A program made the translations under genes and the position numbers. Shown here piece after piece: positions 6,113-39,367 of a DNA stretch of 64,000 nt; position 1 is the first letter of the stretch; each line of letters opens with the position of its first letter. The DNA lies in the NCBI GenBank assembly GCA_977018835.1, contig OZ361256.1, forward strand, positions 62,001 through 126,000. Reading direction: 5' to 3'. The notes under the pieces were generated by a model, which was given only the letters and a program-made list of their open reading frames with translations, was not told the DNA's origin and made no database searches. The stretch comes from Minutocellus sp. GHC0000111. Lineage: Eukaryota.

Positions 6113-6331
6113 TACGTTTGCTTCGCGTACGTACGTGAAATGGTTCCGGGTTTCTTTTGACTTCTGTTTTCCGTCTTTCCTTCGTCCGTCTTGCGCGTTC
6201 GGCGACTGTCGTGCGTGCCGTATCTTCCAAAAACCGACACATCATACTAGTAGCTATGCCGCTCCATGCATGAGCTGGTAGAAGTGTACTCTAGCTAGCT
6301 AGAGTAAGTAAAGCGAAAGCTTCAACAAACC

Positions 6332-9300
6332 ATGACGGAAGGCGGGGCTCCACCTCAACCTCCGGCGCCGGCATCCGGCGCTCCGAAGCCGGCTCCCAAG
6401 CTGAAAATCCGGGCCCCGACACCCTCGGTCTCCACCGCCGCTGCTGCTGCGACTGCTACTACGGGTAATGCTGCTGCCACTGCCGCAAGTGCTGCAGGTG
6501 CTACCGCCAGTACGAGTACTGGTACTAGCAGTGCAGCAGCGGCGGCGGTAGCGGCGGCGCAGGGACCATCGACCAAGCAGGGCATTCCCTCGCCCCGTCC
6601 TCCGAGCGGTACTCGTCCGGAACGATACGATCCACGTGAGAATGAGGCCGACAATGAGCCAACACTCTTGCCCGGCAATGGAGCGACGCCCTACCTCCGC
6701 CTGCTGCACCAGCGGACCGAGCTCAGCTTGGCCTACCAGGACGGTTGTTGGGAGTACGGTGGCGAAACGACGCTATGGTTGGTCGACGAGGGAACGTACG
6801 GGAGTGACGCCAGTGGTGGTGTTGCCAAGGCGCCGATGCCACGTCCTCCTGCTTCTGCTTCGGGTGCTGCTGCTGGTGCTACAGCTGGCGGTGCTTCTTC
6901 GACAACTCCCGCCAAATCGGGTGCCGCCGCCGTTGTTGCTCCAACTCCTCCACCCCAAAAGAGGAGGGAGCTGGCCCTCCACCTGCGCGGCGGATGTCGC
7001 GTGGAATCGGTCAATGTGGAGAGCTGCATTGTCACGGCAAAGACAGTGACGATGACGACGGCGACGGCAGCATCGTCATCACCAGCAGCAGATGCAACCA
7101 CTGGTGCTACGAGTACTGCTAGTAATGCTGGTGAAGCAAATACGGAAGCAGCAAAGGGTGAGAGTCCAGCCGCTCCTGCTGCTGCTAGTTGTGCCCCCAC
7201 CGTCACCACATCGGCGTCGATGCAGCCCATTCCTTCCGAATTCGTCCACTTTGACCCTCTGCAGACGGTGCTGCGGAAACCGGTGTCGTCGTATACGGCC
7301 GATGAGTTTGAAGCCGAGATGATGGAAGCGGCGCGCAATGATGATAATGGTGATAATGGTGGTGATGCTTTGTTGGGAGATGATGAGCCCGGCATTCGAA
7401 AGGGTCGATGCCACGCCGATACGCAATGCGCAAGGGGTGGATCAGGCATGATGGACGCCATCCGTCTCGCGAGCGCTGCCAGTCGGAATGGAGAGCTGCG
7501 CATACTGGTGGGAGATGTATCGCCGGCAGATGGTGGTCAAAAGGAAACGGAAGCCAAACGTCCTCCTGCACCCGCGGCAGAGGTTGCCGCCGCCGCGCGC
7601 AAGTCGGCCAGTGACGTTTGGGCGGCTTCCCTCAATCGTCTCTCCGTCCTCCGATCTGGTCCGCCGTCGATGCCGGGACGGATCGTCCGGCGCCTCCGAA
7701 GTCGCCTGTCCGATCGATGCGAGAAGCGTCGAGACGGTCGGATCAAGCTCGTTTCGGATAGGATGGCCAGCATGACGGTGACTAGCACGGATATTTTGGC
7801 ATCTGAAACGGATGGTGGTAAGGTCAAGGATATGTTCGTCCCCTCTGCGCTCAAGGTTACTGTCCGATTTGTACTCCCGTCTCTTCCGCCTGGTCTAAGC
7901 CATCACGCTGGTGGCATTCACTTTGTGGCGCCTGCCATCAGTGCTAGTATCAATGGGCAGGATGAAGCCTCTGCAACCACTGCTATCAGCCCTCACGTAT
8001 ACACCACGGTGGGTATACATGGGGACCATGAGGGACCACGATCGTGGCTTCCGACACTAGATTCTGCTTCCTCCAAGCATAGGGCCAGCCATGAGCTGAC
8101 TGTAAAGATGACTGCCCAGGAGGAAGAGGGACTGTGGAGCGCAGGATTTGGCGAAGATTTTGGGTGCGGAGAAGGTGTAGGGCATTGTGTCTTCCCTCCC
8201 CGCTCTTGCTTGGATGCTCCGGAATCAGGCGAGATCGATGCTGGGCAGGCACCAGTAGTCGATGGCAAAAGCAGCGGGGCCGACGACATTGCTATTAGGC
8301 ATCAAAGCATTGGGCAGAGGGTGAGGGAAGCCCTATCAAAGGCGCTCGGAACTAGACATGTTGATTTTTGCATCAAGTTTTTCCATGGGCTACCATCTTC
8401 GAGGCCCATTTCTTTGTCGAATGGAGTGAATATGCCGCACATCATCCCTCTCGATGTAAACGAGGAGCCCCATCAGTCACACAGGCTTGTCACATCCCTC
8501 TGGACGACAGCCTCGTGGTCGCCCATCCCAGCGCGATCTCTTGGATTTGCCACGGGGCCCTTTAGGGCTCTCTATGATCCTGAATACTACACTCACGATG
8601 AAGATGACAATGATGAGGAAGAAGAGGATACTGATGTGAAAAAGAGGAGTGTGGCGGGACACCGTGGTGGCGACAGTGGAGATATCGACACAAATTCGAG
8701 GTCCGGGGGCAGATCAGTCCCCCGACCGTCGAAGAGCTTGCTATGGTTCGAGCCGAGGGCATCAGACAGCTGTACTTTGCAATCAAATCGGAGCGAAAGG
8801 ATATCTACTTCAATGCGCCTGATATTGTGGGCTTAGCTGAGCTGTTTGATGAAGTTCTTGGTCCAGACAGTGACCTCGGCGGTGGTGGTACCAGCAGCGG
8901 AATTTTGTCGGTTTTTGCCTCCTATCACTTCCATTGTCAGCGCCGAAGCAGAATGCCGTCGCATACTCCAACTCGACCGGCACTATTGCAGCAACGTCTT
9001 GACATCGAAACAGCGATCATTCGCTCTACCTCTGGCGTTCCCAACCGTGCGCTGTCCCTTACGAGAGATGTACTGGCATTACCATCGTACCGTTCCTCGA
9101 GTCATACGCAAATTTGGATTCCAGGAGCTGTCGCTGGTGGTACGACAAGGGGCTCATTGAATGATTGTCCTGAGACCTGCGGCTCCAACCCATTCCTTGG
9201 TGGTGCGGTGTTTGATTCCGCACTCCTTCCGCCGCCAGGACATCGACTGCCCTTTCATTGCGGCGGACGGGTACTACAGCTTGCCCAAGCACGCGCGGCG

Positions 9301-12300
9301 ATCCGAGGGTGGATTGTTGCCGCTCTACCCCTTGGAAGTCAAGATGATATTGGCCAGGGATATCTGCACTGTCTGATTGAGTCGGTCTTAATGGGCCTGT
9401 ATGAAAAGGGACACGGCGCTTGGGGTGAGGGGGGGCAAGAGGCTCTTTTTATTTCTCCCCTCGATTCGCTATCGGAAGCGGCCTCAACAGCCCATGTCTC
9501 GACTTCCTTCCTCTATCCAATGTTGACGAAGATGCGGATGGAGGTATGCTTGGAGGTGGTGTTGCCGCGGTGCCTACTGAAGATAAGGGTCACCTTTGGA
9601 GGTCTGTAGCCAATGGTACCGAGTCTCACACTGGTTCTCTCGACGAATACTCTTTGAGACATTTACTAATGAGAGATGTTCTTGACTATTTGGAGCGCCA
9701 GGACCGAGATGTACCACTTCCGAGCAACAACTGGCTTGGTTCGCGGCTGTCGGCAACATTTTTGAGCAGCAATAGCACTTCTTCTTCGGCGATAGGGTGC
9801 GGAGCGCTTGAATTGGTACACCCAATGGGAGGCATTGTTTTCCGTCACCTAAAGACGGAGGTGCTTCGAAGAGTAGTGGAGGGAAGGGCAGGCCTCAACA
9901 ATCTTGTTCGAGTAATTCGAGCTGCATTCGCAGCCGCACTCCTTGAAGATGCTGGCGAGACGAAACTAACTCTTCCACAGGAGGAAGATAAGAAGCGCAA
10001 GAAAAAGAAGAAGCCTGTGCACTCTGCAACTCCAGATGCGACTGCCGCCAGTTCTGCCGAGGCGCCGGCCACGCCAGCTGCGGCCTCAAGCGCTGCTGTC
10101 CCCTCCGCCGCTCAAGACTATGCTCGACCAATGCCACCGTATGCAACATGCGTCGATGAGCTCATCAAGAAGGGTGGACTGACGCATATGACATTTGCTC
10201 GCGCCTTGAGGATGCTGTCCGGACCAGTCCGTGAACCATATCTCCGTGGCTCTCTCATTGACGTGGATCGAGATGTCTCGAACAAATTTGGACAGTCGAC
10301 TCGGCAACTCGTAGAGCCTGAGAGCTTCCCCAACTCATTTGTGCGCGGTGCATCATCACTTTACCTGCGTGTCGGGGTCCACGTCGAACCAGCTGGTGGA
10401 GGCGGGGCATCCGACACCGCGGGAGGTGGCTCTGGTCCTCTGGCCATGAAAGGGACGTCCCTCGTAGTTTTCGTTGAGCCTGTCGTCCCAATGGGAGGAA
10501 TCAACTATGGGGGTCCCATTACAATTCGAGTCATTGAAAATGAAGGACAGTGCCGTGAATTTGTCAAGACGGTACCTGTTGATGGTAGCAGAGCCGATTG
10601 GGGACCAATTTTTTACATGCCAAACCCGTCACGACCCAGAAACAGCAAACGGCGGCCACTGGAACGATTGAAAGTGGAGCAAGTGGTCCCAAGTCTCCTG
10701 GTGCGGCATCGGGGGCGGCTGGTGGTGGTTCCTCGGCCTCTGGGGGAACCGATCCTACGGAAGGAAGCGCAAGAGCTGCCCTCCCCTCCCAGTCCATCTT
10801 CACACCAGACACCATGCTTCATAGCATGGGCTATCAGGCGATAGAGCTCATTCGTCTCACGAACCGAACTCCTCTTCTTTGGGTCAGCATTGACCCTCAC
10901 TTCATGTATGATGGTCGTGTATCGATCTTTCAGCCCGATAGCTGCCTTGCGGAGAAGCTCTTTCATGATGGAGAGGCAATTTCGCAGGTTGAATCCATCA
11001 GAGCGCTTGCAGAACGGCCCCATCGCATTCAAGGCTCGGTTCAGGTCAAGACGATCTTTGACGTCGACGTTGCAGAGCTTCCCGTCCGAGTGCTGGGCGA
11101 TTGCCTTCGCGGCTCGGCGACACTTCAGCGAGATCTGCCTCACACCCCAGCAGTGAGAGTTCAAGCAGCACTAGCAATTGCACAATGGCAGAACAATAAA
11201 GCCCCTGACTCCATTGATATTGTTGGGGGAGATGCATGGGTCGGACTTGATCTTCTCCTGCAATATTTCAAGGAACGATGGATGAATGGCGACACAGTCA
11301 TGCCCGTCCATTATACCCGCACAGTCTGCAAGACAGCAAAGAAAAAGAATCTTGGAGGAGATAATGTGGGCGATGAAAGGTCTGCAATGGGTGACTACAT
11401 TTATCTCGACTCCATGACGGAGCCATCGGAGCGTGCGAGCATGATTGAATTGGCGGAGGCAGTCCAGTTCGAGGAGGACGAAGAATATCGCGTCCGTTCG
11501 GCAGTAATTACAGCCATCGCCTCAATTCGAGCAAAGGATGGTCGTACGCCGCCTGCTGTCATTCGATTCCTTACTAACATTCTGAGCTCAGGAGATGGAT
11601 CTATTTCGGGAAATATCATCCCACCCAGCGAGGACAGCCTTGTCCGGAAGAAGCGTCTTCGCCGTAGTATTGATCAAGAAGATAAGGGCGATGATGATCA
11701 AGCTGATAGCTCTGACTGGACAGAGGACCTCATGGACGCTCCTTATGTATCTGCGACATCGCTGGCAGATTCACTTCTGGCCTTGTGCCATGTCAATGTC
11801 CGCCCTGCTCAACCGGACGATCCCGCAGTAGGAGGACCTGGTACTACGAGTATTCCTTCGTTCCAGCATCCAATTTTGCCGCTGATGGCGCTGTGCCATC
11901 GTTGGCTGGAGTGGGATCTCTACAGAGAAGATGTGAGGCTGGAGGCTGAGGCCGATACCATGACCGGAGTCGGATCGGGCTGCTATTCTACTGTATCAGC
12001 ATGCGCCATCACTGCTCTCGTATCCTTGGCGCTTTTGCGTCAAAGCACAAGCGATGCAGGACCCGCCGAGGTCCCAGCAGCAGCAGACATCAAGCACAAT
12101 GCGAGCAGTGGGTCACCATCTAAACGCAAGATCCACGATGACGATAATCATCACACAAAAGCAGAACAAGCATCCACCGCCAGATACTATGCTGAAATTT
12201 TCGATAGCAGACCTGTGCGAGCAGATGCGACAAGGGCAGCTGCGGCTCAGGCTGTCACCTGTATATGCTGCGCGGCAGATCGCCTCAATGACCAAAGTAC

Positions 12301-13238
12301 TGATTCTCTTGGCCTCCTTACCGCTCTAGGACAGAATTCAAGAACCCACAACATCCCCCGGGTTGCGCCAGTCTCTCGTTGCTTTGATGTTTGATGCATG
12401 CACCGGAAAAGTTTGCTCGATGCAAAGAGCAGCAATCGTCGGCGGGAGGAATGATCTTTGCACCAGTTCCTCTCGATTTACACAGGGTCCACTTGGAGCC
12501 AGCCATGGTGGAGACAATGGCAGTGCTTTTCTACTATCTGTTTCTGAGGATACATACCCGGCTGCGAACGCGGTAAACGATGGCGCCAGACAAGGCCTGC
12601 GTACGATGAAAATGGCTGGACGAGATCAAGCATCGAGCGACGTTACTGTTGTTCGTGTTGCCAGATTTGCAACAACGCTTTGGAGGACAATCAACGGAGA
12701 AACATCTCCCACAACCGCAAGGGAATCGTCTAAGCCCGGAGTCTGCTCACAGGACGGACAACTTCGATGCAGTCTCCTTTCCCTTTGGCAGTGGATTTGG
12801 TCCAAAACCTGCATTGCCGTCCTCAGGGTGCAGTCCTGGGATGGCATCGCCGGAACAAAGCGGTACCTCGAGCTCGGTGCTGACAAAGTTATGAAATTTA
12901 CGGCGGAAGAGAAGGATGCATTGAAAGAAGAAGAGAATGCTTGCATGGGGCTGAAGGCAATTGCCGATAGCGAGATTGATCGACAGAGATGGCGAGGAGA
13001 AATGTCCAAACGCTCGTTCGAATTCCACAAGAGTGAAAAGGCGGCGGCCCCAAACGTCGCTGTCGAAACACTCACAAGCACCAGCCAAGATATTGGCAAA
13101 CCGCTGCCGTTGGTTGCCAAGGATGCCGCCTGGAGGAGTGGAGGATGGGTAGCAAGTACAGCGCAGCAGAGACGAGCAAAAGGTCTCGATGGAGGAAGTG
13201 CTATCACGAAGATCCGATTGACGGTGGCAAAGTCCTAA
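6332..13238 (+). CDS. TAF2: TFIID subunit 2 (TAF2)-like protein, split by four frameshifts (about 8710, 9430, 10610, 12330)
   Basis: Consecutive overlapping ORFs. M1-aminopeptidase-like scaffold motifs (GPRSWLPTLDS, PIPARSLGFATGPF) and TAF2-like C-terminal motifs (PLLWVSIDP, LFHDGEAISQVESIRAL, VRVQAALAIA). Three of the shifts are at homopolymer runs. Confidence 0.75.
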
Positions 13239-17117: not shown

Positions 17118-17153
17118 GATGCGCTTGGATATTCAAATTGCCTTGCACCACCA

Positions 17154-17342
17154 TTGTGGGTACCGCACGGTGGGGATGAGCTGGCGACGGTGGTTAGCAG
17201 CAGGCACTAAAACTGCATTCCTGTAGTGCCCAGTTTTTCTGCTGACCACCACCTTCGCCTCCTCTCGTCTCAACTGACCAAGCCACAACCATCTGCGATT
17301 GCTGCCGTTGCAATTGCTAAGTCAGCTTACAGTGCCGGCTCC
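17154..17342 (+). repeat. Left terminal direct repeat of the YR retrotransposon (189 bp)
   Basis: Identical to 25233-25421 except 17161 T versus 25240 C and 17334 G versus 25413 A. Confidence 0.97.
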
Positions 17343-17561
17343 CAGAGCCTGTCTCTCTCTCTCAGTAGTTAGTTAGTTTTAGCATTAGGTTGGTGCTGCT
17401 CTACGAGTTCGTAATTGTTGGCCGACACACCACCACTGCACTGACTGCTTGCTGTTAGTCCAGAGAGACCGCAGTCGACTCCGGAGTCAAACGGCCACGG
17501 CTCGGCTCCGTTGATAGTGCACGTAGATCCGATACCAGTCTCTACGACGGCAGAACAGTGC

Positions 17562-18992
17562 ATGGCCGAACCAGATCGACCGGAACTGGATCACGTGTTG
17601 TTCGGAGTGGCAAGAGACCTCATCGTCCGAGGAGACTCTCTCCTGACCTTCCACGAGGCTGGGACAGACTCAGACGTCAGATTCGGCCCGGGCGCAGAAG
17701 TTTCTTCACAGCCAGGGCGTCGTCCGAGAGACTGACCACAGACGCACTGGATTGGTGGAAAAGTTTTGCCGAGGGCCGAATCGACGTTACCGAGTGCCTC
17801 ACCGATCTCGTCGAGCGCGCCACAGGCTACCTCCCATCGAGAGCCACGGGGTGCCAGCCATCCCCAGCAGCAGCCGTTTCACACCTTACTCCAGTAGCGC
17901 ACGGTCTGGTCGCCGAGCACCTCGAGCAACAAGCCTTCTTGGTGTCACCGGACTGGCCCACGCACCTCGTCAACATCTGGCTGATAGCCACGCGCCTTGC
18001 CGAGCCTGAGATCCGCCGGGCACACGAGACGGCAACTGAGTTGGTTGGACCTGAGCAGTGCACTGTGCCGACTACCACGGGCAGACGGAGGCGTCGTGGT
18101 TCAACAGCATCGGGGGCGAAGGTGTCCGGAGGCATCGGTAGCAGCAGCGCGGCAACACCATTGCATCTGGCCCCAGCTCTGCCGGCTCACGCAGTGCATC
18201 CTCCACTACCAGGCCGACCGAAAAGAAAGACGGCGCATCGCGGCCAGAGAGGGCAGACCTCTAGAGCCGACACCGCACGCTTGCATAGGTTCACGGGGGA
18301 GCGAGCTTCCACCAACGCTGCCGCTCACTTATTTCGAGTGGGAGGTAAGGCCACTCTTCTACCCACGTGACGCACACGACCGAACCGAGCGGGCTGGCGT
18401 CAGTGTGGCATTGGAGCGAGGAGATCTCATCGGCCCTTTCGCCCTGATCACCCAGTTCCCGCTGGATTCGCCGTGCCCGTTCCAGAGACGGCAGCACCTA
18501 CGACCGGACCAACTCACTGAAGCTGTTGTCAACTGGGACAGTGGATTCGAGAGCCTCACCAGCGCTCGACTCCGACACACTCGGCCTGACAGCAATCCTC
18601 TTGGACACCGAGTGGAGGTCAACCCGTACGAATGCTGGGGAAGGCTGGCAGACCTAACGGCGTCCCCCTCACACCACTGGGTAGGCACCTACCATCGAGT
18701 CTATCCGAGGTGGCTAGACGACACGGCCGATCCAAATCGCTGGGAGGGTGCCCACTGCCGCGTCTGGCCAAGAGCATCAATTCACCGGCGCCCCGACGAT
18801 CTCGAGGCACCTATCCGCCTGCGAGACATCACCGCCGATATTTTGGAATCAGAGCCACCGCATCAGGCATTCAACATCCTTCTATCCGCCTTTGGAGAGC
18901 CCGACATCGCCGACCGCATCCTCACCCTCACGGCCGATCTGAACCACATCCAGCGCCGAGAGGACCGACGCCGAAGGCGACAGGCAAGGTGA
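17562..18992 (+). pseudogene. Additional retroelement ORF of unknown function upstream of gag (frameshifted)
   Basis: Three overlapping frames (from ATG 17562, then within ORFs 17558-18370 and 17997-18992) give a plausible protein of about 470 aa ending just before gag. No recognised domain. Confidence 0.5.
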
Positions 18993-19008
18993 TCGAGCAT
19001 TGATCACC

Positions 19009-21068
19009 ATGGCTTCATCTTTCAACACCTGGAAGTCAGTCCTGCTGGCACAAGAGACACCGGCCGGGGCCGACGCCGCCGTAGCTCGAGATTTCCAGAG
19101 ATTCCTCGCCGACAACGTCTGTGAAACCGACCCCACGGCCGCCATGGTCCAGAGCCATGCCCGAGCGATCCAGCAGCAAATCCGCGACGCCGAGGGTTTG
19201 TCCATGCTGGCCCACCATCATCCAGAAGGGAAAGTCGTGGTGATTCACCATGCCGTGGCTCAGGGAGGCACCACCATGCAGCCCGACCTCAGGTTGGGTG
19301 GGCTCCTCGGGATCGACGATGTGGCCCCGGCAATGTCGTTGGCCCAACCTAGCCTCTTGCGGCACAAGGAGGTCCTAGCCCCATCGGTGGAAGCCACACT
19401 GGGGGCACCGTCAGAAGCCGCCCTAACCGGTCTCACCCAGGAAGGCTCCAACACCCGCCACCGGAGTGCCTCCACGAAGTTTAAGTCCCTTGTGCTGCTG
19501 CCACCTTCGATTCTGCAGAATGTTCTGGAAGAGCACGAGGCATCGCCTTGGGCCATCCTGTCCGCCATCAAACGTCGGCTGGATGAGGACGCCGGCAGCG
19601 ACGACGCATCAGACAGCGGTGACGACGAGGGTCACGGCGCAGCAGGTCTTCGCTCCAATGAGGCTATTCAACACGTCGTCAAGTGGCTGTGGTTCGTCGC
19701 CACGTCCGAGCAAGGTGACATCCCGGCCGTCAGCTTGCACCCAACGACGGACCCGGCTCTCAAGACACACGCCCGTGAGATGCACGCTCGGTGCATCACT
19801 GGCGCCAGTGGCGACGGACCACCAGCCGGTGGCGCCCCGACCGACTCTGCAGTTACCACTGCGGCCAACGCCATGACTAGGGCCGCGTCCGAAGTGTCCT
19901 CCCTCACCGGCGCAGTCATGGCCTGCACTGACAAGGTCGACAAGAAGCACTCGGTGAATGGCGCCATCCTCAAGGCCTGTGCCGCTTTCTGCCGGGTCTC
20001 GACCGAGCATGACAATGATGATGTAGCAGCGATCAACTCGAATCTTCCCGAAGGATTGAAAGCACTGCTGGAAGAGTCAAACCTCAAGCAAGCAGCCGTC
20101 GGCCTCGAGCTGCATGTAAAGGGCAAGACCGGAGTCAGGACATCTCTCCAGGGCCTCACCACTCTTACGTCCGCCTCTTTGGCTTCGGGAAGAGCGACAA
20201 GAAAATCTACGATGGCTTCTCTGTCTTCGCCTTTAGCCCGGTAAACTCCAGCAGCAGCAATGCGCCCCTGTGCCTCGCCGCCTCTCAAAAGAAAGGACAC
20301 ACCTCGACTCAGGTGAAGGCTCTTCTGAAGCAGAACTGCCGGTCCCCAACCGAGTGCGACGGTGCCAAACGTCACATCTCGGCCTTCGGCGCTGGCACTT
20401 CCTTCCTTGCCGGAGAGGATTCCGAGCCCGCTCGCTACGTCGCCAGGGTCCTCAGTCACATGAAGACACACGAGGACCAGCACCGCGACATCGCCGAGAG
20501 CCATGGCGAGAAGTTCTGGCTGGCGATGTTCCACAACATCGACGCCTCCATCCATGCATTCTGGAAAGCTTGTCTCCGTTCCCCCGACGACGCCGGCAAC
20601 GACCTCTCTTGCTTCTCAATGGCCGACGAGTCCAAAAAGACAATGAAGACTCAGAATCCTTTCATCTACCCCAGCCACATCAAGCTCGTCCAATCGGCCG
20701 ACGCTCCCACCCCTTCCTCGGATTCCGACTCCGACAAATCAGAGCCAAGAACCAGTCCGAAAAAGAAGCAAAAGACGGGCGGCGCCAGCGGCAGAGCCCA
20801 CCAGCACGAACACTTCGTCACGTTCGATATCAACCCCGGCAACTTTGCAAAACGGCATGGCAAGAAATCCGAGCCCTATGAGGACAGACCTGAAATTAAT
20901 GGCTGTAAATTCTGCCCTCCATTCATCCTGACAGGTGTCTGCGGCGCCGGATCCTCGTGTAAGCTCAAGAAGTCGCATGTCAAGAGGCCTCTTAAGGCAT
21001 CGGAGAGAGGACCCGTCGAGCAGTGCGTCGAGAAGTGCGATCGGAAGTGCGAGGAGGCGGAGGAGTGA
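19009..21068 (+). pseudogene. gag-like ORF with C-terminal CCCH zinc finger; frameshift near 20175
   Basis: ORFs 19000-20244 and 20313-21068 join through GFGKSDKKIYDGFSVF. CPPFILTGVCGAGSSCKLKKSH near the end; positioned before RT. Confidence 0.7.
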
Positions 21069-21672
21069 CGGATCGGGTGGGCACGGAGGCGTGGCCCACC
21101 CTCGGAGGATGCTGGAGAAACATCTCGGCCAGCCGGCCGAGCTCGTCCCTCCAAGCGCCGTCGAGTGCAGCCAGATGCGTCGGCGTCGATCCGCCCCGGT
21201 GGCTCCAGCCGCCCAAGGTTGTCCGGCACCCCAAAATCCGGCGTGTGCGGTCGCAACGACATCAGCAACCAATCCAGGCTCTCCGGTGCCCCTAATGCCG
21301 GAGCAGAAGGCCGAGGCGTTAGCAGTGACCTTCGGTCGGGTCCTGGTCCCCCTAACACCAGCGGTGATGCCTGCGCCGACAACAGCATCTCAGGCTCTGG
21401 CTCCAGCACCACTAACGCTGGCGGTGCGGAAGCCACCGACAACCTCTTCGACCGGCTAGGCCAGCGAGAGAAGGATCTCCTAGGTAAGCAGCCCCAACCC
21501 GAAGCACAGTCTCCCCCTGGTTCCCCTACGCACAGCAAGGAAGTAGAACCGATGCGCCAAAATGGTAAGTGAGACCAACAGGTGAAGAAACACCTACAAC
21601 AAACGGGGCAGCCCAGCGCCCACAATGGGCCCACCACGGTCGGACAGACCCGCATGCTCGTGAACGTGCAGC

Positions 21673-24044
21673 ATGCACATGTCTCACCTTTTTCTCGCCT
21701 TATGCAATTCCACGTGGGAACTAGAGCCCATCTTCGATGTTTCCACCTTGGCACAGCACGTCCGACGAGCAGTCGAGTCCCCGTCGGCCACACCGAAGCC
21801 CACGGAGTTCAGATTTGAGCTCTTGACGGAGGCCGCCGCTCACAATTGGTCGGTCCTCAAGAAATGCGATCGTTCTCTGAGCAGGGCACTCGAGGCGCAG
21901 GGCGGGTCGCCACTCCAACCGGGATCGGAGTTCAGAGACCTGAGTCTTCTGGAGCCGATTCTTGGCCGGCACCCGCTGTGGCCCCGCTTCCGCTCCATTC
22001 TCGACAGTGGATCCGACTGGGCCCTCGATCCGGTGAGCGACGAAAGCAGACTGGACAGCGTGATAAAGAGCATCGGCCGAGGCAACCACAAATCGGCCAG
22101 GGATAGGCCGGAGGCACTCAAGGACCAAGTTCTCGACGACGTGACCCGCGGTTTCGCCCTCCCTCTGCCAGCAAAGGTCGCGCCCCTCATTCCTGGAGCG
22201 GAGGTGGCTCCGATGGGTTTGGTAGCACAGAACACGATCAGCGAGGCTGGCGAGATCATGCCCAAGGACCGCCTGACTCACGACCAATCCTTCGAGATCG
22301 GTGCCGCACGGTCCGTCAACAACAGAGCACGCATGGAGGACCACCAGCCAGTGGTGTTCGGCCATGCCCTCCGGCGAGTGATCCACTACATCGTAGACGC
22401 CCGTCACAAGCATCCCCGCACTCCCATCCTCCTGCAGAAGGTCGATTTCAAGGCTGCGTGTCGCCGGGCCCACTTGGCTCCCAGCACGGCCGTCAAAACG
22501 ATCACCACCCTGGATGGCATTGCCCTCATGTCCCTCCGGCTGACTTTCGGCGGCCGCCCTTGCCCGAGCGAATGGTGCAACATGTCCGAATCGGCGGCCG
22601 ACCTGGCCAGGGCCCTCCTGCAATGCTCGGACTGGGACCCGTCAGAGCTCCACAGCCCCCAGCAGAAGCACTTGGGTCGCCCCAAGGTGGAGGGCGACGA
22701 TGTGCCGTTCGCGCCGGCCCTGGACATGATCGCAACCCTTCCTTCCCGACAACAAGGATGGCGTCGTCGAGCCGCACATCGATGACCTCATCGCCGCAGC
22801 CCCTGACCTGGGCGACAACAAGGATCGGATGTCCGCTGCCACCCTCCTCGCCATCCACGCGCTTGGCCGACCGGTGTCCGACAGCGAGCCACTGCCCAGA
22901 GATGACCTTGCCTCCATCAAGAAGCTGCTCGCCGAGGGGACGCCTTCCGAAGCACTGTGTCTCTTGGGGTGGGATGCTGACACCCGGCGGCTCCTACTGA
23001 GGCTCCCTTGGAGCAAGCACCTGGCCTGGCGCGATGACATGCTTCGGCTCCTCAGAGCCCGCGGCGCCACCAGATCAGAGCTGGACACCTTGGTTGGAAG
23101 GCTAAACCACGTCGGACACATCACTCCAGCCCCGCACGACACTTCCTCAGCCGCCTTCGGGATCGGCTCTGGAAGGCCCGCCGCCACGGCCGCCAACGGT
23201 TCGACTCTGAGGATGCAGAAGACCTCAACCTGTGGCTCCGCTTCCTCCGAAGGGCCGCCGATGGCATGAGCATGAACCTCCTCACGTGCCGTTGCCCCAC
23301 CCACGAGAGCACACAAGTGACGCCTGCGAGCACTGCATCGGCGGATGGTCCTCATCCGGCAGAGCGTGGAGATTTGCCCTCCCCGAGGAGCCATGGGGCC
23401 GGTTCACCCTCAATTACCTGGAATTCCTCGCCGCCGTCATCGGCCCATGGATCGACCACATCGAGGGCAACCTGCCAACCCTCTCCTGCGTGCTGTCGGG
23501 GACCGACAGCACCACGGCCGAGGGATGGCTCAGGAAGTCGAACTTCGTGTCTCACGGCGAGAAGGATGCCGACGTAGCGGTCAAGCTGGCCACGGCGCGG
23601 AAACTAGCCGACATGCTCATCGAGACCAACACCATGCTGTGCTCACAGTGGTTCCAGGGGAAGCGCAATCCGGAGGCCGATTCTCTTTCTCGTGACACCG
23701 ATCTCTCTGATGCTGACCTCACGAAATTGCTTCTGTCATCTCCCGAATGTCAGCTTCCCTCAAATTTCAGGATTGCACCACTGCCCAACGAGATTGCTTC
23801 CTGGATTGTCTCGCAGGCGCGGACGCTGCCCGTCAGGAGGAAGCAGTTACAACGGCCACTGCCGAGAAGCACGCTCTCGCGTGGAGCCGCTGGACTGAGT
23901 TCCTGCAGCTCATCGGGACCGGGGACGACGTCTTCCTCGACAAGGCATCACCCCGAGACCGAACAGTCACTCTCGGCGCCTTTGCCCACGCCGTCCGACA
24001 GGCCAGCTTTTCGGGGCCAAAGTTTTCGCGACTGGCTGCGTTGA
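21673..24044 (+). pseudogene. Reverse transcriptase-RNase H (DIRS/Ngaro type), frameshifted and mutated
   Basis: RT motifs KDRLTHDQS, KVDFKAACRR, LTFGGRPCPSEW, PHIDD (YxDD position), LGW and LVGRLNH. RNase H motifs SDACEH, LNYLEFLA, TDSTTA and NPEADSLSR. Frameshifts near 22745, 23130 and 23310. Confidence 0.9.
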
Positions 24045-24955
24045 CAGTCCGAGACACCGTCTCACAAGCATGCTCGTCGTCCTTCCGGCACAACCAGCGC
24101 AGGGACCCAGGGAAAGACGACATCGGCCAGCCTTCATTCCTTCTACAGCGGCAGTTCCGAGGACACAGCCAGTCCGACCCGGCCGAGCGGCCGGAGAAGG
24201 CGATCACCTGCCGGCTCCTCCGAGAGATCGCCTCCGTCAGGGAAACGGAAGAGGACCGTGCAGTCGGGCAACTAGCCGTCGGCGCCTTCTTCTTCGCGAT
24301 GAGGTCTTGCGAACACTCCAGAGTCAGCGGTGAGCGCAGGACCAAGCTGCTCCGCCTCCGCAACATCCAGTTCTGCCGCGGCCGACGGCGCATGTGTCAC
24401 AACGACCGGTCCCTCCTCTCAGCAGACTCTGTCTCCGTCACCTTTGAGTTCCAGAAGAACGACGAGCGTGACGTCACGACTGCGCAACACTGCACCCACG
24501 ACGCCACCCTCTGCCCAGTTCGAGCTTGGGCTGCCCTGGTGAAACGAGTCCTAGGGCACCCTAGTGCCAACAGCGTCACGCCGGTAAATGCCTTCGTGGT
24601 CAACGGCGTATTAAAATGCATTCCTGCCACCCGAACAGTTGACAAGATCCGAGCGTCGGCCACAGTGATTGGAGAGGACGTCCTGGGCTGCCATCCCTCT
24701 GAATTCGGATCACACTCCATTTGCAGCGGAGCAGCAATGGCAATGTGTCTAAATGATGTTCCCACGTGCACAATCATGCTGGTAGGGCGGTGGTCCAGTG
24801 ACGCCTTCCTCAAGCACATCCGTCGCCAGGTCCAAGAATTTACATCCGGAGTCTCCACACGCATGATCCAACGAGGAGGCTCCTTCTTCAACGTGCCCCA
24901 CGCACACTCGACGAGCCATCGCGAAGACCCAAGGACCCCAAATTGCCGCCAATGA
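23747..24955 (+). pseudogene. Tyrosine recombinase with mutated catalytic residues
   Basis: FFFAMRSCEH, QKND, LCPVRA, HSICSGAA (HxxR position reads C) and GRWSSDAFLKHIR (catalytic Y position reads H). Overlaps RNase H in another frame. Confidence 0.92.
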
Positions 24956-25232
24956 TTCGCCGGCATCAACAGTGTTGGCCGAAATGCCGGCTTCGGGACT
25001 CCAATGCCCCCCTTCGCCCTGTTCACCTAAGCACGACACACATCATTGGCCGATCTGTGCTACGGAAAGGAGGAGGGGGAGAGGGACCTCACCCTATGCT
25101 GCTATCTAAGAAGTTTCATTTACCGCCAATGCCAGCTCCAGTTCACGTAGTTAAACTGCATTTCATGTTCTACTAAGTTGCATAGAGTTGGGAGAATCAG
25201 CGGAGGGAGGTGCTGTGTTCGATGTGTCATCG

Positions 25233-25421
25233 TTGTGGGCACCGCACGGTGGGGATGAGCTGGCGACGGTGGTTAGCAGCAGGCACTAAAACTGCATTCC
25301 TGTAGTGCCCAGTTTTTCTGCTGACCACCACCTTCGCCTCCTCTCGTCTCAACTGACCAAGCCACAACCATCTGCGATTGCTGCCGTTGCAATTGCTAAG
25401 TCAGCTTACAGTACCGGCTCC
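25233..25421 (+). repeat. Right terminal direct repeat of the YR retrotransposon (189 bp)
   Basis: Matches 17154-17342 at 187 of 189 positions. Confidence 0.97.
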
Positions 25422-26376
25422 GACGGTTGTATCCCACCAAACGGAACATGATGTGATCGAGCTCCGCTTCCTTCAGCACCACGCAAGCACGCAAGCAAGC
25501 AAGCAAGCAAAGCTCACACGCAGGTTTCAAGCTAAGGCACCGGGTGTTTTGGGGAATGATGACGACGGACAGGCGGATTTTCTCCCTCTTGCTGGCTGGG
25601 CCGTGTTTTTTTGGTTCTGCAGTTCTCTCGATGATTCTCGTTACACCCCTACATGTACTACGTAGCTACATCTAGATAGACTAGGAATTCCTAGCTAGCT
25701 AGTATTTGATGAGTGTACGGACGGGTTTCATCCAACCAGAGCACCGCCACGCGCATTGCCTGGTGGCGGTGGCGGGTTCCTTGGCAGTCGCAAGTTTGGC
25801 AGGAAGCGCTACCGGTAGCTCCAGGAAATTGCCCACAAAGCAAGAGTACTCACAAACAGGCTGTTGCTTCTCAGACACATTTGCATGTTTAGAGATTGAA
25901 ATATATCATGGTATTTAGAATCAAACGTTGTTTCTTTGAGTTGAGTGTGCGAGTTCCATCCGGTTGTTCAAAACATAAATGCCACACATAAAATACGATC
26001 GCACGCACTAGATCTACTAGCTAGGGATCCCTATTGATAGTAAATGCATATAAAAAATATGTAGCCCATTAGTTTAACTCATGCTCGAAAACGTAGCGCT
26101 ATTCATACCCCTGTTTTCGAGTGCATAGGTTCCATCCGGTTGTTAAAACATAAACAAAACATAAATCATAACCTGTACCAGCAGACTCCTCTAGATCTTC
26201 CGGTACTGGCATTGAGAAAAGACGAGAGAACTTTCTTCGTTATCGTCAATCATCTCTCATCTTTCTCCTTTCTCTTTTTATATCTTTCCTGATAATCTGA
26301 ATCTCAAACCACATTCAATTCCAATGTGCACAAAATCAAATTCAATCAAATCCAATCGATCCAATAAAGCATAATC

Positions 26377-32825: not shown

Positions 32826-35800
32826 CTAAAGAAGAGAAGCAAATATTGTGGCCCCTGCGACGACAATCGATGTGGCGATCGATAATTGAGTTCGACGAGA
32901 CGGGGATGAGGAGCTTGTGCCGCAAACACCGCCGAGGCCGTCGACGTTGCCAACCGCTTCGCAGTCAACGCCCATCTTCGGTATGGCACTAGCAAACGCT
33001 TGGAAAACCTTCCTTGTGCCGTCACGAACAGGCTCGGAGTCGAATTGAAAGTCCATATTCCTCTGGATGACTCTAGCAGCATCCCCATCTACCTCGGCAA
33101 CATACGGTAAGACAGAATGAGAAAACACGTATCCTTCTGCCAGGTCCTTGCTCTTATCGAAGAACAGCAGCTTTTCGTTCGCAATGGCATAGCGCAGAGT
33201 ACCCTGGATGAGAGGTACTTGTAAGAGCTGCTCAATCTCTTTGGTGGTCTTTTGGAGTGCGTCGCAATTACTGCCCATTGTCTCACCCCTGCCGGCATAA
33301 AGCAGATCAATCAACAAACCATTTAGTTCGGCTGTTCCGTCGTTCTCACATCGGTTGAATTGCTCGCATCTCTTGTTGGCAAGGCTGTACATCATGAGAC
33401 CACGGTCTGTACCTCCAGACTCGGTGCCCTCGAGAGAACCAATCAAATACGCTGCCGCCTTGTCCCACTCGTTGGCTGCATTGGCCTTTCTCTGGGGATC
33501 GTTTGATCGGCAGTCATCAATGGCTTCGTACATGGCCTCGAGAGCTGCCATGTACACAACCATGTATTGAGATGCCTTGACAACAATCTCCGTTCGTTGT
33601 TCTGGTGATGCCAGGGACAATTTGTCGGTATCGAGGGCCATGGAAATCATATGGTCGGCGTAATCGGCAGCGTCTTCAATCTCATCGACTTCAGCTCCAA
33701 AATAGTTCTTGAAGTACTCAAACGATGGGACAATCTGACGAGTTGAGGTAGTTGCGAGGTCCTTGAGGGAAAATACCTCGTCGCCGATGCGTGTTGTAAT
33801 TGAGGCGTGTCTTCCAAGAGTGTAGTAGTCTCGGACGGCGTCGTATGCACGCTCTTTCATAAAGATCTGGATCGCCTGAATGTCCAAATCAAGTGCGGCG
33901 ATCTTGCGAACATCAGTCTGGGGGATGTAGCCCGCAAGAGGGTTGAGTTCTGGCGTGCCGACGCAATCACCACCATAATCGTTGAAAACACCAATATCAT
34001 CGCAAGACAGGCCGAGGCATTGGTAAGTGCTCTCAATAACGCGGATGATATTGTCGACGTCGACCACATTGTATTGCTCCACCATGAGCTTGTCTCGGAG
34101 GAACTCAAAGTTGCCTGGATTGCACGCCGCAGTGAGGGGCACAAAGGCTTGAGCGTACAATTGGACTCGTTCCCGGTCGTTCTCGGCGAGATTGTAAATC
34201 AGATTCTGGATGAGTGGGACCGTCATTTGAGAAATGATCTTGTGAGCAATAGAGCGCAATCTCTTGTAGCTGTCATTATTCGTCGTACAGGCTCCAGGGT
34301 AGGAGATCTCGTTCTTGGCATCATTGAGTAGAGAGATGATCTTGACGTTGACGGTTGACTGCCCGGTGCTGTCCTGGCCAAACTTTTCACCAATCTCCTC
34401 AGCGAGGGCATAGAGGGAGTGACCTTCCTCAGCGGACCCCGTCTGCTGGCTATCACCAATGTAGTAAGCTGCAACTTCGTCGATAGAGTGGACGCCGTCG
34501 TCGTCCTTGAGGAGTTTTCGTCGACAATTATCAACGCCCTGATACAACTCATGAACAATGTACATCCAAAGATTCAATACCCGAGCAGCCTCAACCGGAA
34601 TGAGGGAACTGCCCTGGCTCTCGAATGCTTTCTGCACGATAGAGTCAGCATACTCGCCAGTCGGCCCACCGAGATAGAGACCATTGTCGATGCCGTCTAG
34701 AGCATACTTGAAGAGGATGTAAGTTGGCTCTTGGGACATGACCAAGGGTGCAGATGTACTGAAGCTCGACAAACTGCGTGTTCCAACCTTTTTGCCATTC
34801 TTGTCGTAAATGTCGGAGTTGAGTCCACCCTCGTAGATTCCCCTGGCAACTTCGGAGTTGCCATCCTTGAGGGCCTTCTCCATATCACGAAGATCAAGAG
34901 CAAGCAGCGCTCTGTCCTGAACATAAGTGCTGGTGGTGTACAGACCATTCGCCAGGGTTACTGGAGTATCAACTGCTACCGCGTCGGCGGGGCAGACGCC
35001 AGTTGCAGTGGCCTGGAAAACACCGACTTCCGTGCAATCAGCACTCATAAAAGCAATGGCGTCGCGGAATGCATCAATGACCGAGTCCACACTTGCTGCC
35101 CCACCATTAAGTTTCATGTTATTCTCGATGGTTGTGGCACTGCTTGGGTTGGAATCATCAACAAGAGGAGCGACGGCATACATAAGTGCATGTGCTGCTC
35201 CTGCAATGCCATCGGACGAGCCCATCTTAGACAGCTGAGCCGTGGCATTGATACTGCCCTGAATCAAGGCAACTTGCAGAGACGAAGTGATTCCAACGTC
35301 AACAAGATCCGAGGCTCCCTCACATTCGGAATCACTCAAAAACAGCTTGCCGCCGGTGAGATACTCCACAAGCTTCGAGCTCGATGCACCGACGTTCGAG
35401 TCGGAGCACTTGCCAAAGTTGTCACAGATTTCATTCCCAAGAGAGTACATGAGTTTACCACCCGAAGGATAATCAGACATTTGCTTTGCTCCATCAATTG
35501 ATCCAATGAGGACCGCAGCGGCACGATCCCAAGAGGCACTTCCGTGGTCGGAAGAGTCGCTCTCACACTCGTCAATAGCAGTGTAGAGCTCTCGGATACC
35601 ATACATGTAAGCTACCATCTCTCTGAGCGCACCGACGACAAACTGTGCAATATGGCTGTTAGAAAGTCCCCCAAAGACCCCCTTCTTGTCGAATGCATCC
35701 ATGATGATGCTATCAGCATAGTAGGGATTCGAGTAATACGACGAGTAGATGTCGAACTGAGTATTACCGGGAACGATGCGGTCGTCGTCGGTAGCAAGAT

Positions 35801-38800
35801 CTTGGAGAGTAGTGTAGGCATCATTTCTCTCAATGATGCTGTTCTGGCCGCCAACATAGATCGCGCGGGCCTGCTGGGGTGCTCCCATTTGCAGCATGAT
35901 GTTGATCTGAAGGATGTCCCGATCGATGGAGGCGATTCGCGACACATCTGTGGAAGGCTCGTATCCGGCCAAGGAGGTTGACGTTGCGACGCCGCCGCCG
36001 CACAGTTGTTGAGTTGCGACGGGGTCCTGGAGAATGCCAATGTCGGAACAAGTCAGACCGAAGCAGCTGAGGCTGTCTCTCAACTTGGCAAGAATATCGC
36101 CAAGGTCGTTGGAGTCCCACTCGTAGTCAATCAACTCATCGCGGAGGTAGGCGAAGGCTCCGGGGTTGCATCCTGCCACCTGAGGCACGGTTGACAATGC
36201 ATAAAGTTCGATGAAGTTCTCAAGCTCGCTTTCGTCATCGGCAGTTGCAGCATTCATGTAGTATACAAGATTGCGGATAAGTAACCCGTTCATCTGAGCA
36301 ATAATCTTGTCCACAGCACGACGGAGCTGGATCGGAGCTCCACCAGAGCAAGAGTCTGCCAGAACCTTGGCGTCACGGAAATGGCTCATGATGAGCGTGT
36401 TGGAGGACGCCTCACCAGGGCTTTCGCCGAATCTATCCGCTGCCTCCTCGGCCATTGCATACATGAGATTACCATTGCTTGATCCCTTGATTTGTCCAGC
36501 TCCAACGTAGTATCCAACGGCAGTGTCCATTGCAAGCGCACCGTCAATGGAGCTATCCGTACACGAGAGGACGGCCTGCTCGAGATGATGGATGATTTCC
36601 ATCCAAGTATTCAGCGCCACGGACGCAACAGCGGCCAGGTCAGTGTCCTCTGCTATCTCAAGAGCCTTGGAAATGACAGTGTTGGCGTACGAGGAGTCCG
36701 CTAAACTGCCAGTACCACCGTCCACAAAGACCGGCTCGTCTCTAAAGGCAAAGCGGAAGATGTTGTACAGACGATCCTGACCATATCGCGAGGAAGCGTC
36801 CGTACTGAGGCTTGATAGGCTGGTTGTAGAGCTCTTTCCGTTGTTGTAAAGCGTCTTGGCATTGGCAACGCTCGAAGAGGCAATCTCCTTTACATCGTTC
36901 GCGATAAGACCAGCTTCCTTGCCAGCTGTCGTGAAGGTGTAATCCACTTGACCTCCCTCCGGTTGAGTGGCAGGTCGAGTTGGGGCTTGTGCCGGCACGG
37001 AGGTCGGAGGTCGGGCAGTCGGTCCGCTCACCGGCGAAGTTGGGCCAGACTGAGTTGGAGGGACAGGCACAGCGCCTCCATTTGCCAAGGCACACATGTT
37101 TCCGTTTGCCACAACATCTGTGTAGACACCAACATCGCCGCAGTCAACATCCATCGTCTTCAAAGCTTTGGCAATGGAAGCAAAAACCTCCACATACCCA
37201 TCCGGCACAGGCTTGCCTCCACTGGAGGGAAAGGCCATATTCTTGTCGACAGTTCTAGAATCGAAGGCATTCACTTGGTTGAGGTAGGGCAGGATTGATC
37301 TGGACGCACCAAAGCCTTCTCCGATACTACCTTCCCTGGAATTGGCTCCGAGCATGTCATTGACAGCGGCAAAGTGGAGTGTTCCCTGGATCATTGCCAG
37401 TCTCATATCGCCAATGAGCTTTGCGGGGAGAGTAGGATTGGGCAAGGCCGCGCAACTTCCATCGGAAAGAGACTCCTTGCCTCGCTGAAAGAAATCAATC
37501 ATATCACTATTTGCCTGAGCTTTTCCATCATCATCGCAGGTGCCGAACTTATCGCAAACTTCGTTCGCGAGGCCGTGCAGAAGAACGCCGCTGCCCGTAC
37601 CACCAGCAGCGGTACCTTCGCCAGTACCGACATACAAGGCAGCGCCGCGGTCCCAGGCATCCTCGGCCGCCTTGGAATCCGATCCACAAAGATTAATAGC
37701 CTTGTGCATCTCCTGGAGCGAGTACATTGGGGTGACAAGAGTTTGGAGCAATCTGAAAACAACTCCCTGGAGCTGTTCCGGAGAAGCCCCAGGAAAGTTG
37801 GTCGATGCGCTTCCCTTGAAGGCATCCTGGATCATGGTATCGGCATAGTTGTCATCGTCATTGTAGTACGTCTTGAACCAATCAGATTCAGGGACAACCG
37901 ATCTTTCACTGGAAGTGGCGATGGACTGCAAAGAAAGAAGCGAACCATCCTGCATACTATTGCGTCCATTCACATAAATGTCCGCGGCAGCATCGTACGC
38001 TTCCCAGCCCACGAGGATCTTGATGCGCAAAACATCGCGATCGAGCTTGAGAATCTGCACATTTTGCATGAATGTTGTGTTTTTGATAAAGAACAAAGGG
38101 TATGAGAAACCAAATGTCTTGGGCAATTATGAAGAATCCAAAAAATGATGAGCAATGAGCATGCAATAGATCGTCAAGCAAAAAGAGCAAAACTCACTTC
38201 CGAAACATCCCGCTCAGGCATATATCCAGCGATATCGGTCACCAACGCACTGTCACTGCATTGAGGGATCGCACCATTCTTGTACGAGCCAACATCCTGG
38301 CATGTAATGCCAAGACACGGGTACAGAGCCTGCAATCTCGACACGACTTCGGGAAAGTCCTGCTGATTCAGGTCCTTCATCACGAGTTCCTCAAGGAACC
38401 AATCGAACTCGGCCGTGCTGCAAGCGGCAATCTGCGGCGTCAGGGCCAAAGCATAGAGCTCCAAGAACTTCTCGTTTTTCTCGGAGCTGTATTGGTAGAG
38501 ATTCTGTACGAGCGGTACAGTCATCTGGGCAATAATCTTGTTGACGATGAAGCGGAACTGCAGGTAACCATCGGGCTGCTTGCAGGCACCGGGCTGAATG
38601 ATGTCCGTCTTGATCTGATTGAGGAGGCCAATGATGTTGGTATTGACCTCGGCCTCGATGTTATCCTGTCCGAAGCGGAGACTGGCCTTCTCGGTGAGGC
38701 TGTAGAGCATGTGTCCGCCCTCATTCTCACCGAATTCCTGTCCACTACCGATCCAGTAGGCAGCGGCCTTGTCGAGGGCGGCTTCGCCGCTGGGCGAGTC

Positions 38801-39367
38801 CGACCCGGCCGACGTGGCGGTGGCCTTGCATTCGTTCATGGCCTCGTACAGGTGGTGGACGACGGTCATCCAAACACTGGTCACCAGGGCGGCATCGGTC
38901 TCAATGTTTTCGGTGTTGAGATCGAACAAATCCTCCACGATCGTGTTGGCATACACTCCCACATCCTCGTCGTCGAAGTGGTTGAGGTCCTCGTGCTCCT
39001 TGACGTTGCCAATGTAATTGAAGGCATATCGGAAGACGTTGAACATATCGTCGCCCTTCATGAGCGATGCGGCGTCCAAACTGAGCTTGGCGAGGGACTT
39101 GCCAGGCGACGAACCGCCTCCATCCTTGTAAATTTGCTTCTTGGTGGCAAGGTCAGTGCTCTCCTTGATGGCGGCAGCATCGAGGGCGAGGTTGGCCTCA
39201 TTGATGGGATTGGTAGTGGCAGTGTAGCCACCGCCTGCCAATTTGAGTGGCTGAGCATTGGCCAAGTCTACGTTCGAAAGAAGAAGAGCCAATTGTCCCA
39301 CCACCAGCATAAATGATGATGAAGCTGCGGACCCGCCAAGAAGACATGAATTGTTGCGGCGCCTCAT
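32826..39367 (-). CDS. Surface protein of about 2132 aa with six Fea1/low-iron-inducible periplasmic protein-like repeats; intron 38055-38197
   Basis: Hydrophobic N-terminal segment; six repeats with (W)D(K/R/E)AAAY.IG...G..(L/M)Y.LA...FG-like and (M/L)TVPLIQ-like motifs; C-terminal hydrophobic anchor. Phase-0 GTGAGT...CAG intron joins DVSE|ILKLD. Confidence 0.75.

Follow-up and report, generated by a model that had tools for sequence, protein, structure and literature searches.

To our knowledge, the mutators that are directed at repeated DNA, among them repeat-induced point mutation (RIP), the decay of 5-methylcytosine (5mC) and APOBEC deaminases, act on cytosine and push transposons towards A+T. 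Hypermutation of TpA is reportedly the subject of a 2026 preprint by Mettrop et al., in which integrated DNA of nucleocytoplasmic large DNA viruses (NCLDV) and of virophages in Bigelowiella natans is said to have undergone changes of TA to TG or CA, with the genes being spared. In the present work, we have analyzed 64,000 nucleotides of DNA from Minutocellus sp. GHC0000111 (assembly GCA_977018835.1, contig OZ361256.1, positions 62,001 to 126,000; hereafter the window), which contain a tyrosine-recombinase retrotransposon of 8.27 kb on the plus strand (17154–25422). Copies of this element carry independent A:T to G:C transitions, located mainly at TAY (Y, pyrimidine) and on either strand, and within the window these changes are confined to the element.

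Our literature search, which was not exhaustive and missed the Bigelowiella preprint, gave no indication that TpA or A-to-G hypermutation had been described for the transposons of diatoms. A preliminary description of this DNA had stated that no described pathway fits the pattern; for diatoms we have found none, but the statement now needs the caveat of the Bigelowiella natans preprint, which is known to us by description. New in the present work are the copy-resolved evidence, the youth of the affected family and an erasure of TA that is uncoupled from the loss of CpG. Diatoms encode, according to the available part of one source, DNMT4 relatives of the RIP protein RID whose function is unknown (PMC9998398).

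Loss of TpA within the element

The stretch flagged in the preliminary description (17343–25232) is strongly depleted in RTAY (R, purine), and our counts agree exactly with those given there. RTAY accounts for 5 of the 102 TpA in this stretch (at 17532, 18626, 18838, 20827, and 24608) vs. 627 of 1830 in the rest of the window (Fisher p 5e-12), and the long run described as free of TpA proved to be so (Table 1). Dinucleotide shuffles of the flagged stretch (n = 500) contained 22.9 ± 4.4 RTAY with a minimum of 10, and none of the 500 had five or fewer. The depletion stops sharply at the ends of the element, as expected of a process confined to repeated DNA in this window: three long inner segments have 0.3–1.5 RTAY per kb and six flanking segments 9–16 per kb, the overall densities being 0.85 per kb inside the element and 11.25 per kb outside. 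Sites with TAY on one strand are reduced to 8.1 per kb inside vs. 17.1 per kb outside, whereas YTAR, at 4.8 vs. 4.5 per kb, is not depleted. There is no depletion of CpG, for which the observed/expected (o/e) ratio is 0.91 inside the element and 0.93 outside.

No Tyr is encoded by the tyrosine recombinase (YR) open reading frame (ORF) of 402 amino acids (aa) from its Met, nor by the gag-like ORF, which is 411 aa long from its Met and not 414 aa as first described, and a single Tyr is encoded by the reverse transcriptase (RT) ORF of 370 aa. The six His or Cys codons that had been cited as former Tyr codons are all present at their positions, each after a purine. One of them, the CAC of the PHIDD motif at 22775, had been assigned to the 370-aa RT ORF, but it lies in another frame as a result of a 4-bp duplication at 22737. 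The claim that the motif is strictly RTAY, with surviving Tyr codons following a pyrimidine, did not hold, since Tyr codons after a pyrimidine have also been changed (24374, 23795, and 22387).

Contigs of sequencing runs X1 and X6 join position 17153 to 25423; this empty-site joint sets the borders of the element at 17154 and 25422, making it larger than the stretch first flagged, and indicates that the empty site still exists and the insertion is polymorphic. Direct repeats of 189 bp are present at both termini (Table 1), and they differ at two positions in total, both of which are RTAY sites. If these repeats, like long terminal repeats (LTRs), were identical after reverse transcription, the changes in them would have come later.

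Changes among copies and their sequence context

Homolog searches and a cluster look-up identified at least 313 related proteins (15 of the 31 members for one cluster), 88 of which align to the element at high identity. From these we have retained 62 that are encoded by large contigs; the others were the window's own (2), members of a sister lineage at ~80% identity (10), or from short contigs or duplicates (14). The 62 copies are protein fragments, which provide ~23 rows per RT site and 10–24 rows per YR site. They cover 927 codons, of which 45 are polymorphic (two alleles in at least three rows), and 43 of these 45 fit a TA-containing ancestor by one transition (14 fit TA only, none CG only, 29 both, and 2 neither). 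At 18 three-state sites (16 Tyr and 2 Ile codons) the copies show 140 T>C changes, 130 A>G changes and 73 ancestral calls, the two changes being balanced (p 0.58), and Arg is absent from all 303 calls at Tyr sites. Ancestral Tyr codons thus switch between Tyr, His, and Cys copy by copy, and the copy-specific A>G and T>C changes that the preliminary description had proposed to look for are seen at TA sites among sister copies.

Several of these sites are conserved in relatives of the element, which carry Tyr there and not a natural His or Cys. The RT KAACRR column is Tyr in 97 and Phe in 13 of 112 distant RTs, and the catalytic YR column is Tyr in 101 of 102 distant relatives. The near-invariance that had been ascribed to both the YR Tyr and the RT YxDD Tyr applies to the former, but the YxDD column in this family is either Tyr or Phe (44 and 33, with one His, of 82 aligned among 112 examined). 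Tyr is present at the two RT sites in none of 23 copies, and the likely catalytic Tyr of the YR is missing in 9 of 12 (Table 1).

Departures at RT codons other than TA are few (87/9484), and the non-TA alleles are mostly singletons (106, vs. 16 shared), so that the family appears young and nearly star-like, with its members mutated copy by copy. The outcomes at RT sites are unlinked, as all four gametes are present in 190 of 213 site pairs and the mean r2 is 0.063 vs. an expected 1/n of 0.062. There is also no coordination between strands within a copy, where 309 of 650 pairs are changed on the same strand vs. a null of 315 ± 10.

The mutation spectrum, computed as amino-acid-visible changes over opportunities, is dominated by A>G at TAY (470/1130, 42%; 39% on the top and 45% on the bottom strand), with 60 of 63 sites changed; the TA ancestors derive in part from the same data and this figure is not fully independent. 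A>G is less frequent at TAR (30/340, 9%), much less so at AAY (16/809, 2.0%), CAY (20/1982, 1.0%) and GAY (4/3338, 0.1%), and is nearly absent at AAR (0/1077), CAR (3/2542) and GAR (1/3141). C>T is found at 24 of 5491 CpG (0.4%) and at 12 of 11196 other positions, and transversions at 31 of 61655 (0.05%), including 1 of 2550 at TA. This bias far exceeds any effect of GC content, and it supports the earlier proposal of a targeted A:T to G:C process across the retrotransposon, running opposite to RIP. Five sites have TAY on just one of their strands, and there 48 changes affect the TAY strand and 8 the TAR strand. On this sequence evidence the recognized unit appears to be TAY on a single strand, RTAY being a target on both strands, and GTAT is changed fastest, followed by GTAC. 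A strictly palindromic RTAY motif, as first proposed, is thereby ruled out, although its action on both strands stands.

The same changes are present in contigs of eight sequencing runs compared with the element (40 of 107 and 40 of 60 rows, 76 of them distinct). Among these 76, 38 form 19 CA/TG swaps, a further 16 consist of one transition at TA, and the remainder comprises 17 transitions of other kinds and 5 transversions; 16 of the 19 swaps have R..Y flanks vs. a background of 25% (p 9e-8). The contigs have either the letters of the window or the swapped ones (e.g., an X1 contig is identical over 22421–22702), and the RNA-run contigs show changes of the same kinds and in the same counts as DNA, including TG at 24314–24315. 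Runs X15, X17, and X19, which are labeled as other organisms, contain the same swaps at a depth of 2–11; they may carry traces of the same organism and were not used as outgroups.

A separate observation concerns indels. Among 13 that were listed in comparison with other copies, 10 are tandem duplications of 2–4 bp, and the positions include 17462, 17636, 19216, 20162, 22737, 23130, 23305, 23835, 24074, and 24873. They are not located at TA sites, different ones are present in other runs, and frameshifts affect many of the copy proteins. For a family of this youth they seem frequent, and they may be a second signature, left by repair within silenced DNA.

Candidate origins of the transitions

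A process that produces context-specific transitions on both strands, independently in each copy, and whose substrate would be double-stranded DNA, at a stage that follows cDNA synthesis and likely also insertion, with a defensive outcome, very probably accounts for these results. We infer the timing from the terminal repeat pair together with the star-like set of copies, and the defensive effect is suggested by the loss of the likely catalytic YR Tyr and of the YxDD Tyr. For the underlying chemistry we favor, at roughly even chances, adenine deamination by a repeat-targeted host DNA adenine deaminase. Such a genome-defense enzyme, hypothetically a zinc deaminase of the TadA/ADAT fold (whose known natural members have RNA as their substrate) that is directed to DNA that is silenced or repeated, would deaminate adenine in double-stranded transposon DNA after insertion, and the resulting hypoxanthine would be copied as G at the next replication. 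With the first event, both strands would lose either the A or its 5' T, so that each site would be changed once and end as TG or CA; RTAY, which offers two target strands, would be nearly erased, and YTAR, which offers none, would survive. Engineered TadA adenine base editors, in the available part of one study, work best after a 5' T, better before C and worse before A (PMC8989541), and we prefer adenine deamination because the spectrum, with its pure transitions, its dominance of a 5' T and its bias to a 3' pyrimidine, resembles that of these editors.

A number of observations weigh against this interpretation. The TA ancestors are in part deduced from the polymorphism itself. Outgroup DNA speaks in their favor with TA at 7 of 22 (L001) and 7 of 19 (L002) such sites and CG at one each, but the share with TA in L001, the nearest outgroup, is no higher than 7 of 22, and the presumed TA site 24364 is CG in both; the remaining sites differ in these outgroups, which are 70–77% identical, and were polarized by the copies alone. 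Sites in the YR are partly linked (r2 0.125 vs. 0.068; four gametes in 52 of 68 pairs), survival differs among copies (p 0.014), and RTAY survives in 1 of 108 cases in the RT vs. 24 of 131 in the YR. The same editors are least active after a 5' A (PMC8989541), but AAY is changed here at a rate that is not below those of CAY and GAY. No deaminase family was found by Pfam among the 36 ORFs scanned, the enzyme search being limited to the window, and one transposon family of this organism was studied. There are also 44 related metagenome loci without depletion of RTAY (o/e 0.86–2.0); a short-read consensus restores ancestral bases and would hide the depletion, and these loci consequently do not bound the range of the signature. 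Lastly, sequence by itself is unable to tell whether A or its paired T is the damaged base.

The survival of RTAY climbs towards the 3' end (24395–24815), and the outer RTAY of both terminal repeats is intact. This may reflect a targeted domain that fades at its borders, or a bias in the collection of YR copies.

On balance, we regard as a serious but somewhat less than even prospect the broader proposal of a diatom "reverse RIP", in which a natural double-stranded DNA adenine deaminase acting at TAY of transposons, without CpG decay, would disable nearly every copy of a family while its insertions are still polymorphic, as part of a defense system shared with chlorarachniophytes.

The alternative that damage falls on the T of RTA is unlikely, although less so than the other rivals. 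Oxidation of this thymine in silenced transposon DNA by a dioxygenase of the TET/JBP type, to 5-hydroxymethyluracil (5hmU) or to the miscoding base 5-formyluracil (5fU), would allow pairing with G and leave the same T>C and A>G spectrum, with which the pure transitions on both strands agree. Dinoflagellate TET/JBP enzymes make repeat-enriched 5hmU, with an old report of a preference for TA and TC mentioned in the available part of one source (PMC11572971), and phage thymine dioxygenases are described, in the accessible part of another, as sequence-specific (PMC13229309). However, TC, which is GA when read from the opposite strand, has changed less than any other context in the element (see GAY and GAR above), the accessible text of a study of Breviolum reports no sequence preference of 5hmU (PMC11071213), and the papers retrieved that combine diatoms with 5hmU concern, by title, dinoflagellates.

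Repeated resynthesis of silenced transposon DNA by an error-prone polymerase similar to DNA polymerase eta, which would insert G opposite template T at WA (W, A or T), is a decidedly weaker candidate. The order of preference at the -1 position (T, then A, C, and G) agrees with the WA motif, and the frequent copy-specific tandem duplications hint at repair synthesis. The 21-fold excess of TAY over AAY and the lack of any change at AAR are, however, contrary to this explanation, as is the single transversion among 2550 opportunities at TA vs. the 470 transitions in 1130; in somatic hypermutation, polymerase eta leaves many transversions at A.

Comparably doubtful, and if anything slightly more so, is a change made once per copy during retrotransposition, either by A-to-I editing of RNA or by deamination of the cDNA or of a circular intermediate, which would be the adenine counterpart of APOBEC restriction. 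The youth and nearly star-like relationship of the copies and the polymorphic insertion are in accord with such a change, and events on a double-stranded circle before integration remain compatible with the data. RNA editing, on the other hand, would produce A>G on one strand, whereas T>C and A>G are balanced here and interleaved within each copy, and the lack of Tyr at either RT site in all 23 copies looks as if the source element had been changed too.

Ordinary causes are very improbable, be it the decay of CpG in methylated DNA (another source of CA/TG swaps), gene conversion with a GC bias, or an error of assembly. For 29 of the 45 polymorphic codons an ancestor with CG would do as well as one with TA, and linkage could also be lost if copies exchanged freely. 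CpG decay is, however, contradicted by the absence of CG-only codons and of Arg, by the near-equal CpG o/e ratios and by the low count of changes at CpG; gene conversion gives no preference for TAY, and assembly error is at odds with the contigs of eight runs, in which the letters of the window or the swapped ones recur. The evidence of spectrum, strands and contigs leads us to reject assembly error and RNA editing along with CpG decay. Rescue editing, in which the element would be stored recoded and Tyr restored in its transcripts, has next to no prospect: the frames do remain open for the most part, since Tyr codons are turned into codons for His or Cys and not into stops, but two separate chemistries would be required where one codon reads His in some copies and Cys in others, and the RNA-run contigs, which cannot show editing levels, have DNA-like change counts and TG at 24314–24315.

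The element, its relatives and comparison with known systems

As indicated by modeled folds, the flagged stretch is a tyrosine-recombinase retrotransposon, with an RT of the LTR/retroviral type and a recombinase in place of a DDE integrase (Table 1). Pfam assigned no family to the element's own eight frames or to the RT relatives, and PDB sequence searches returned nothing useful for the identity of RT or YR, which was decided instead by folds. The model of an RT relative (P0157, pLDDT 85.5) matches the RTs of Moloney murine leukemia virus (MMLV), foamy virus, and Ty3 (best E 2e-9). PF00589 is present in 27 of 50 relatives, and P0001, which of the Tyr-retaining recombinases is the closest, has a modeled fold that matches those of Cre and Xer (best E 2e-7). 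The presumed gag region is named by its position, without a Pfam match, and has small duplications relative to other copies; the region that we take to be RNase H-like is named by its motifs, its Pfam result being blank. The YR of the window copy has a stop codon at 24953, where 15 of 16 aligned rows have Ser. No methyltransferase family was found by Pfam, which also misses the RT, and there is little room for one between the RNase H-like motifs and the YR. A suggestion that an upstream ORF is ApeA-like came from weak leads in an atlas search (at most 0.90, with few shared features) and was rejected.

Table 1. Coordinates of the element, of its predicted parts and of sites discussed in the text.
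Feature	Position	Strand	Evidence or remarks
Whole element copy, TpA-hypermutated domain	17154–25422	+	Empty-site joint; RTAY density inside vs. outside
Left terminal direct repeat	17154–17342	+	Outer RTAY 17161 intact; inner site 17334 reads TG
Upstream reading frames, in pieces	17459–18992	+	ORFs; without Pfam family
Presumed gag-like region, two frames (19009–20244, no Tyr; 20022–21068, Cys-rich end)	19009–21068	+	Position only
Predicted RT, frameshifted at 22737 and 23130 in the window copy	21673–23269	+	Relatives at 35–97%; fold of P0157
599 bases without any TpA	22396–22994		Direct count
RT KAACRR: TGT, Tyr in relatives; copies Cys 20, His 3, Tyr 0	22459–22461	+	Copy alignment
RT YxDD position: CAC; copies His 20, Cys 3, Tyr 0	22775–22777	+	Copy alignment
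Putative RNase H-like region, overlaps YR start	23211–23710	+	Motifs TDS..A..W and AD.LSR in translation; tblastn of copies
Predicted YR	23747–25027	+	PF00589 in relatives; fold of P0001; sequence alignment
YR RSCEH: CAC; copies His 11, Cys 9, Tyr 0; one RNA-run contig reads TG	24314–24316	+	Copy alignment
Likely catalytic YR Tyr: CAC; copies His 6, Cys 3, Tyr 3	24815–24817	+	Copy alignment
Right terminal direct repeat	25233–25421	+	Inner site 25240 reads CA; outer RTAY 25412 intact

Contigs of low depth in runs X6 and X7 join 17380–17381 to 25049 or 25105 with 14–36 other letters in between, and these are perhaps short non-autonomous derivatives. The read depth is ~2500 on element contigs vs. 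131 on the empty-site contig, a ratio that we do not take as copy number.

Fragilaria, Skeletonema, and Attheya are the sources of the named relatives of the element, and these, together with the proteins encoded elsewhere in the window (see below), point to a eukaryotic host that is likely a diatom. P0322, a singleton from an ENA contig of 5167 bp, represents another recombinase family at 43% identity. It also lacks Tyr throughout its 402 aa and reads Cys in four of the Tyr columns, the catalytic column among them, for which the chance is ~0.015 over 316 proteins; no close copies were found among its 98 matches. In 12 other distant proteins His or Cys is scattered at two conserved YR tyrosines, which could be ordinary decay, and these were not counted. 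A search of viral contigs found no relative of the element. Short matches to 22659–22693 and 23485–23523 inside otherwise unlike contigs suggest that there are further related retrotransposon families.

Elsewhere in the window, Pfam identifies helicase-associated, Vps8, and DNA ligase proteins. On the minus strand, an ORF of 1766 aa (32826–39427) contains three Fea1 (low-iron-inducible) stretches and adjoins a Fea1 ORF, and an ORF with CHAT, NACHT/STAND NTPase, and leucine-rich repeat (LRR) regions (51510–56552), followed by unannotated ORFs, is possibly an immune-type gene; RTAY is near normal there. Five long overlapping ORFs on the plus strand (6308–13238) are partly of low complexity and without a Pfam family.

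A mutator that converts A:T to G:C, at a rate that exceeds CpG decay ~100-fold in this DNA, would constitute a second genome-defense chemistry in a major group of primary producers; RIP indices would miss it, and in diatoms it would bias the dating of transposons as well as annotation that relies on GC. Should a DNA adenine deaminase prove responsible, it would be the natural counterpart of laboratory-evolved adenine base editors and the first natural enzyme of its kind used in genome defense. The family provides a good test bed for screening candidate enzymes, as it is young, has intact CpG and offers a quantitative fingerprint (T much preferred to A and C, and these to G, at -1; pyrimidine much preferred to purine at +1; GTAT fastest).

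Among known systems, fungal RIP is similar in that its transitions are confined to repeats, specific for a dinucleotide and crippling to transposon proteins. However, RIP converts C:G to T:A, mostly at CpA, and creates TpA, as stated in the available part of the literature, whereas the changes in the element run in the opposite direction, raise GC and lack strand coordination within a copy; C>T at 0.1–0.4% vs. A>G at TAY of 42% shows that the direction of RIP is not followed here. APOBEC and ADAR are likewise host deaminases that leave context-specific transitions in retroelements, as described in the accessible part of one source (PMC4866542), but they produce clusters on one strand (G>A, or A>G on the transcript), while the element is hit evenly on both. 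In gene content the element appears Ngaro-like, following the definition in the available text of PMC4157794: a single strand encodes the RT, the RNase H-like region and the YR, direct repeats are present, and the Pfam search revealed no methyltransferase, the upstream frames (17459–18992) being without a family. It differs from Ngaro in its single repeat pair (A1, A2) at the termini, with no B1/B2 pair of at least 25 bp and an empty site that joins right after A2, so that the split direct repeats A1-B1-A2-B2 are absent. TadA editors, bacterial TadA and ADAT2/3 share with the process in the element A to G conversion that is strongest with a 5' T and helped by a 3' C, at least in the accessible part of PMC8989541. 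The editors were engineered for DNA, the rank of 5' A differs from that in the spectrum of the element, and the enzyme proposed here is hypothetical. The closest likeness in outcome is to Bigelowiella natans, where, going by the description of the preprint, changes of TA to TG or CA are limited to foreign or mobile DNA, as they also are in the element. The present case differs in its likely diatom host, a stramenopile and not a chlorarachniophyte, in affecting a young retrotransposon family whose changes are resolved copy by copy, and in following a TAY rule without loss of CpG.

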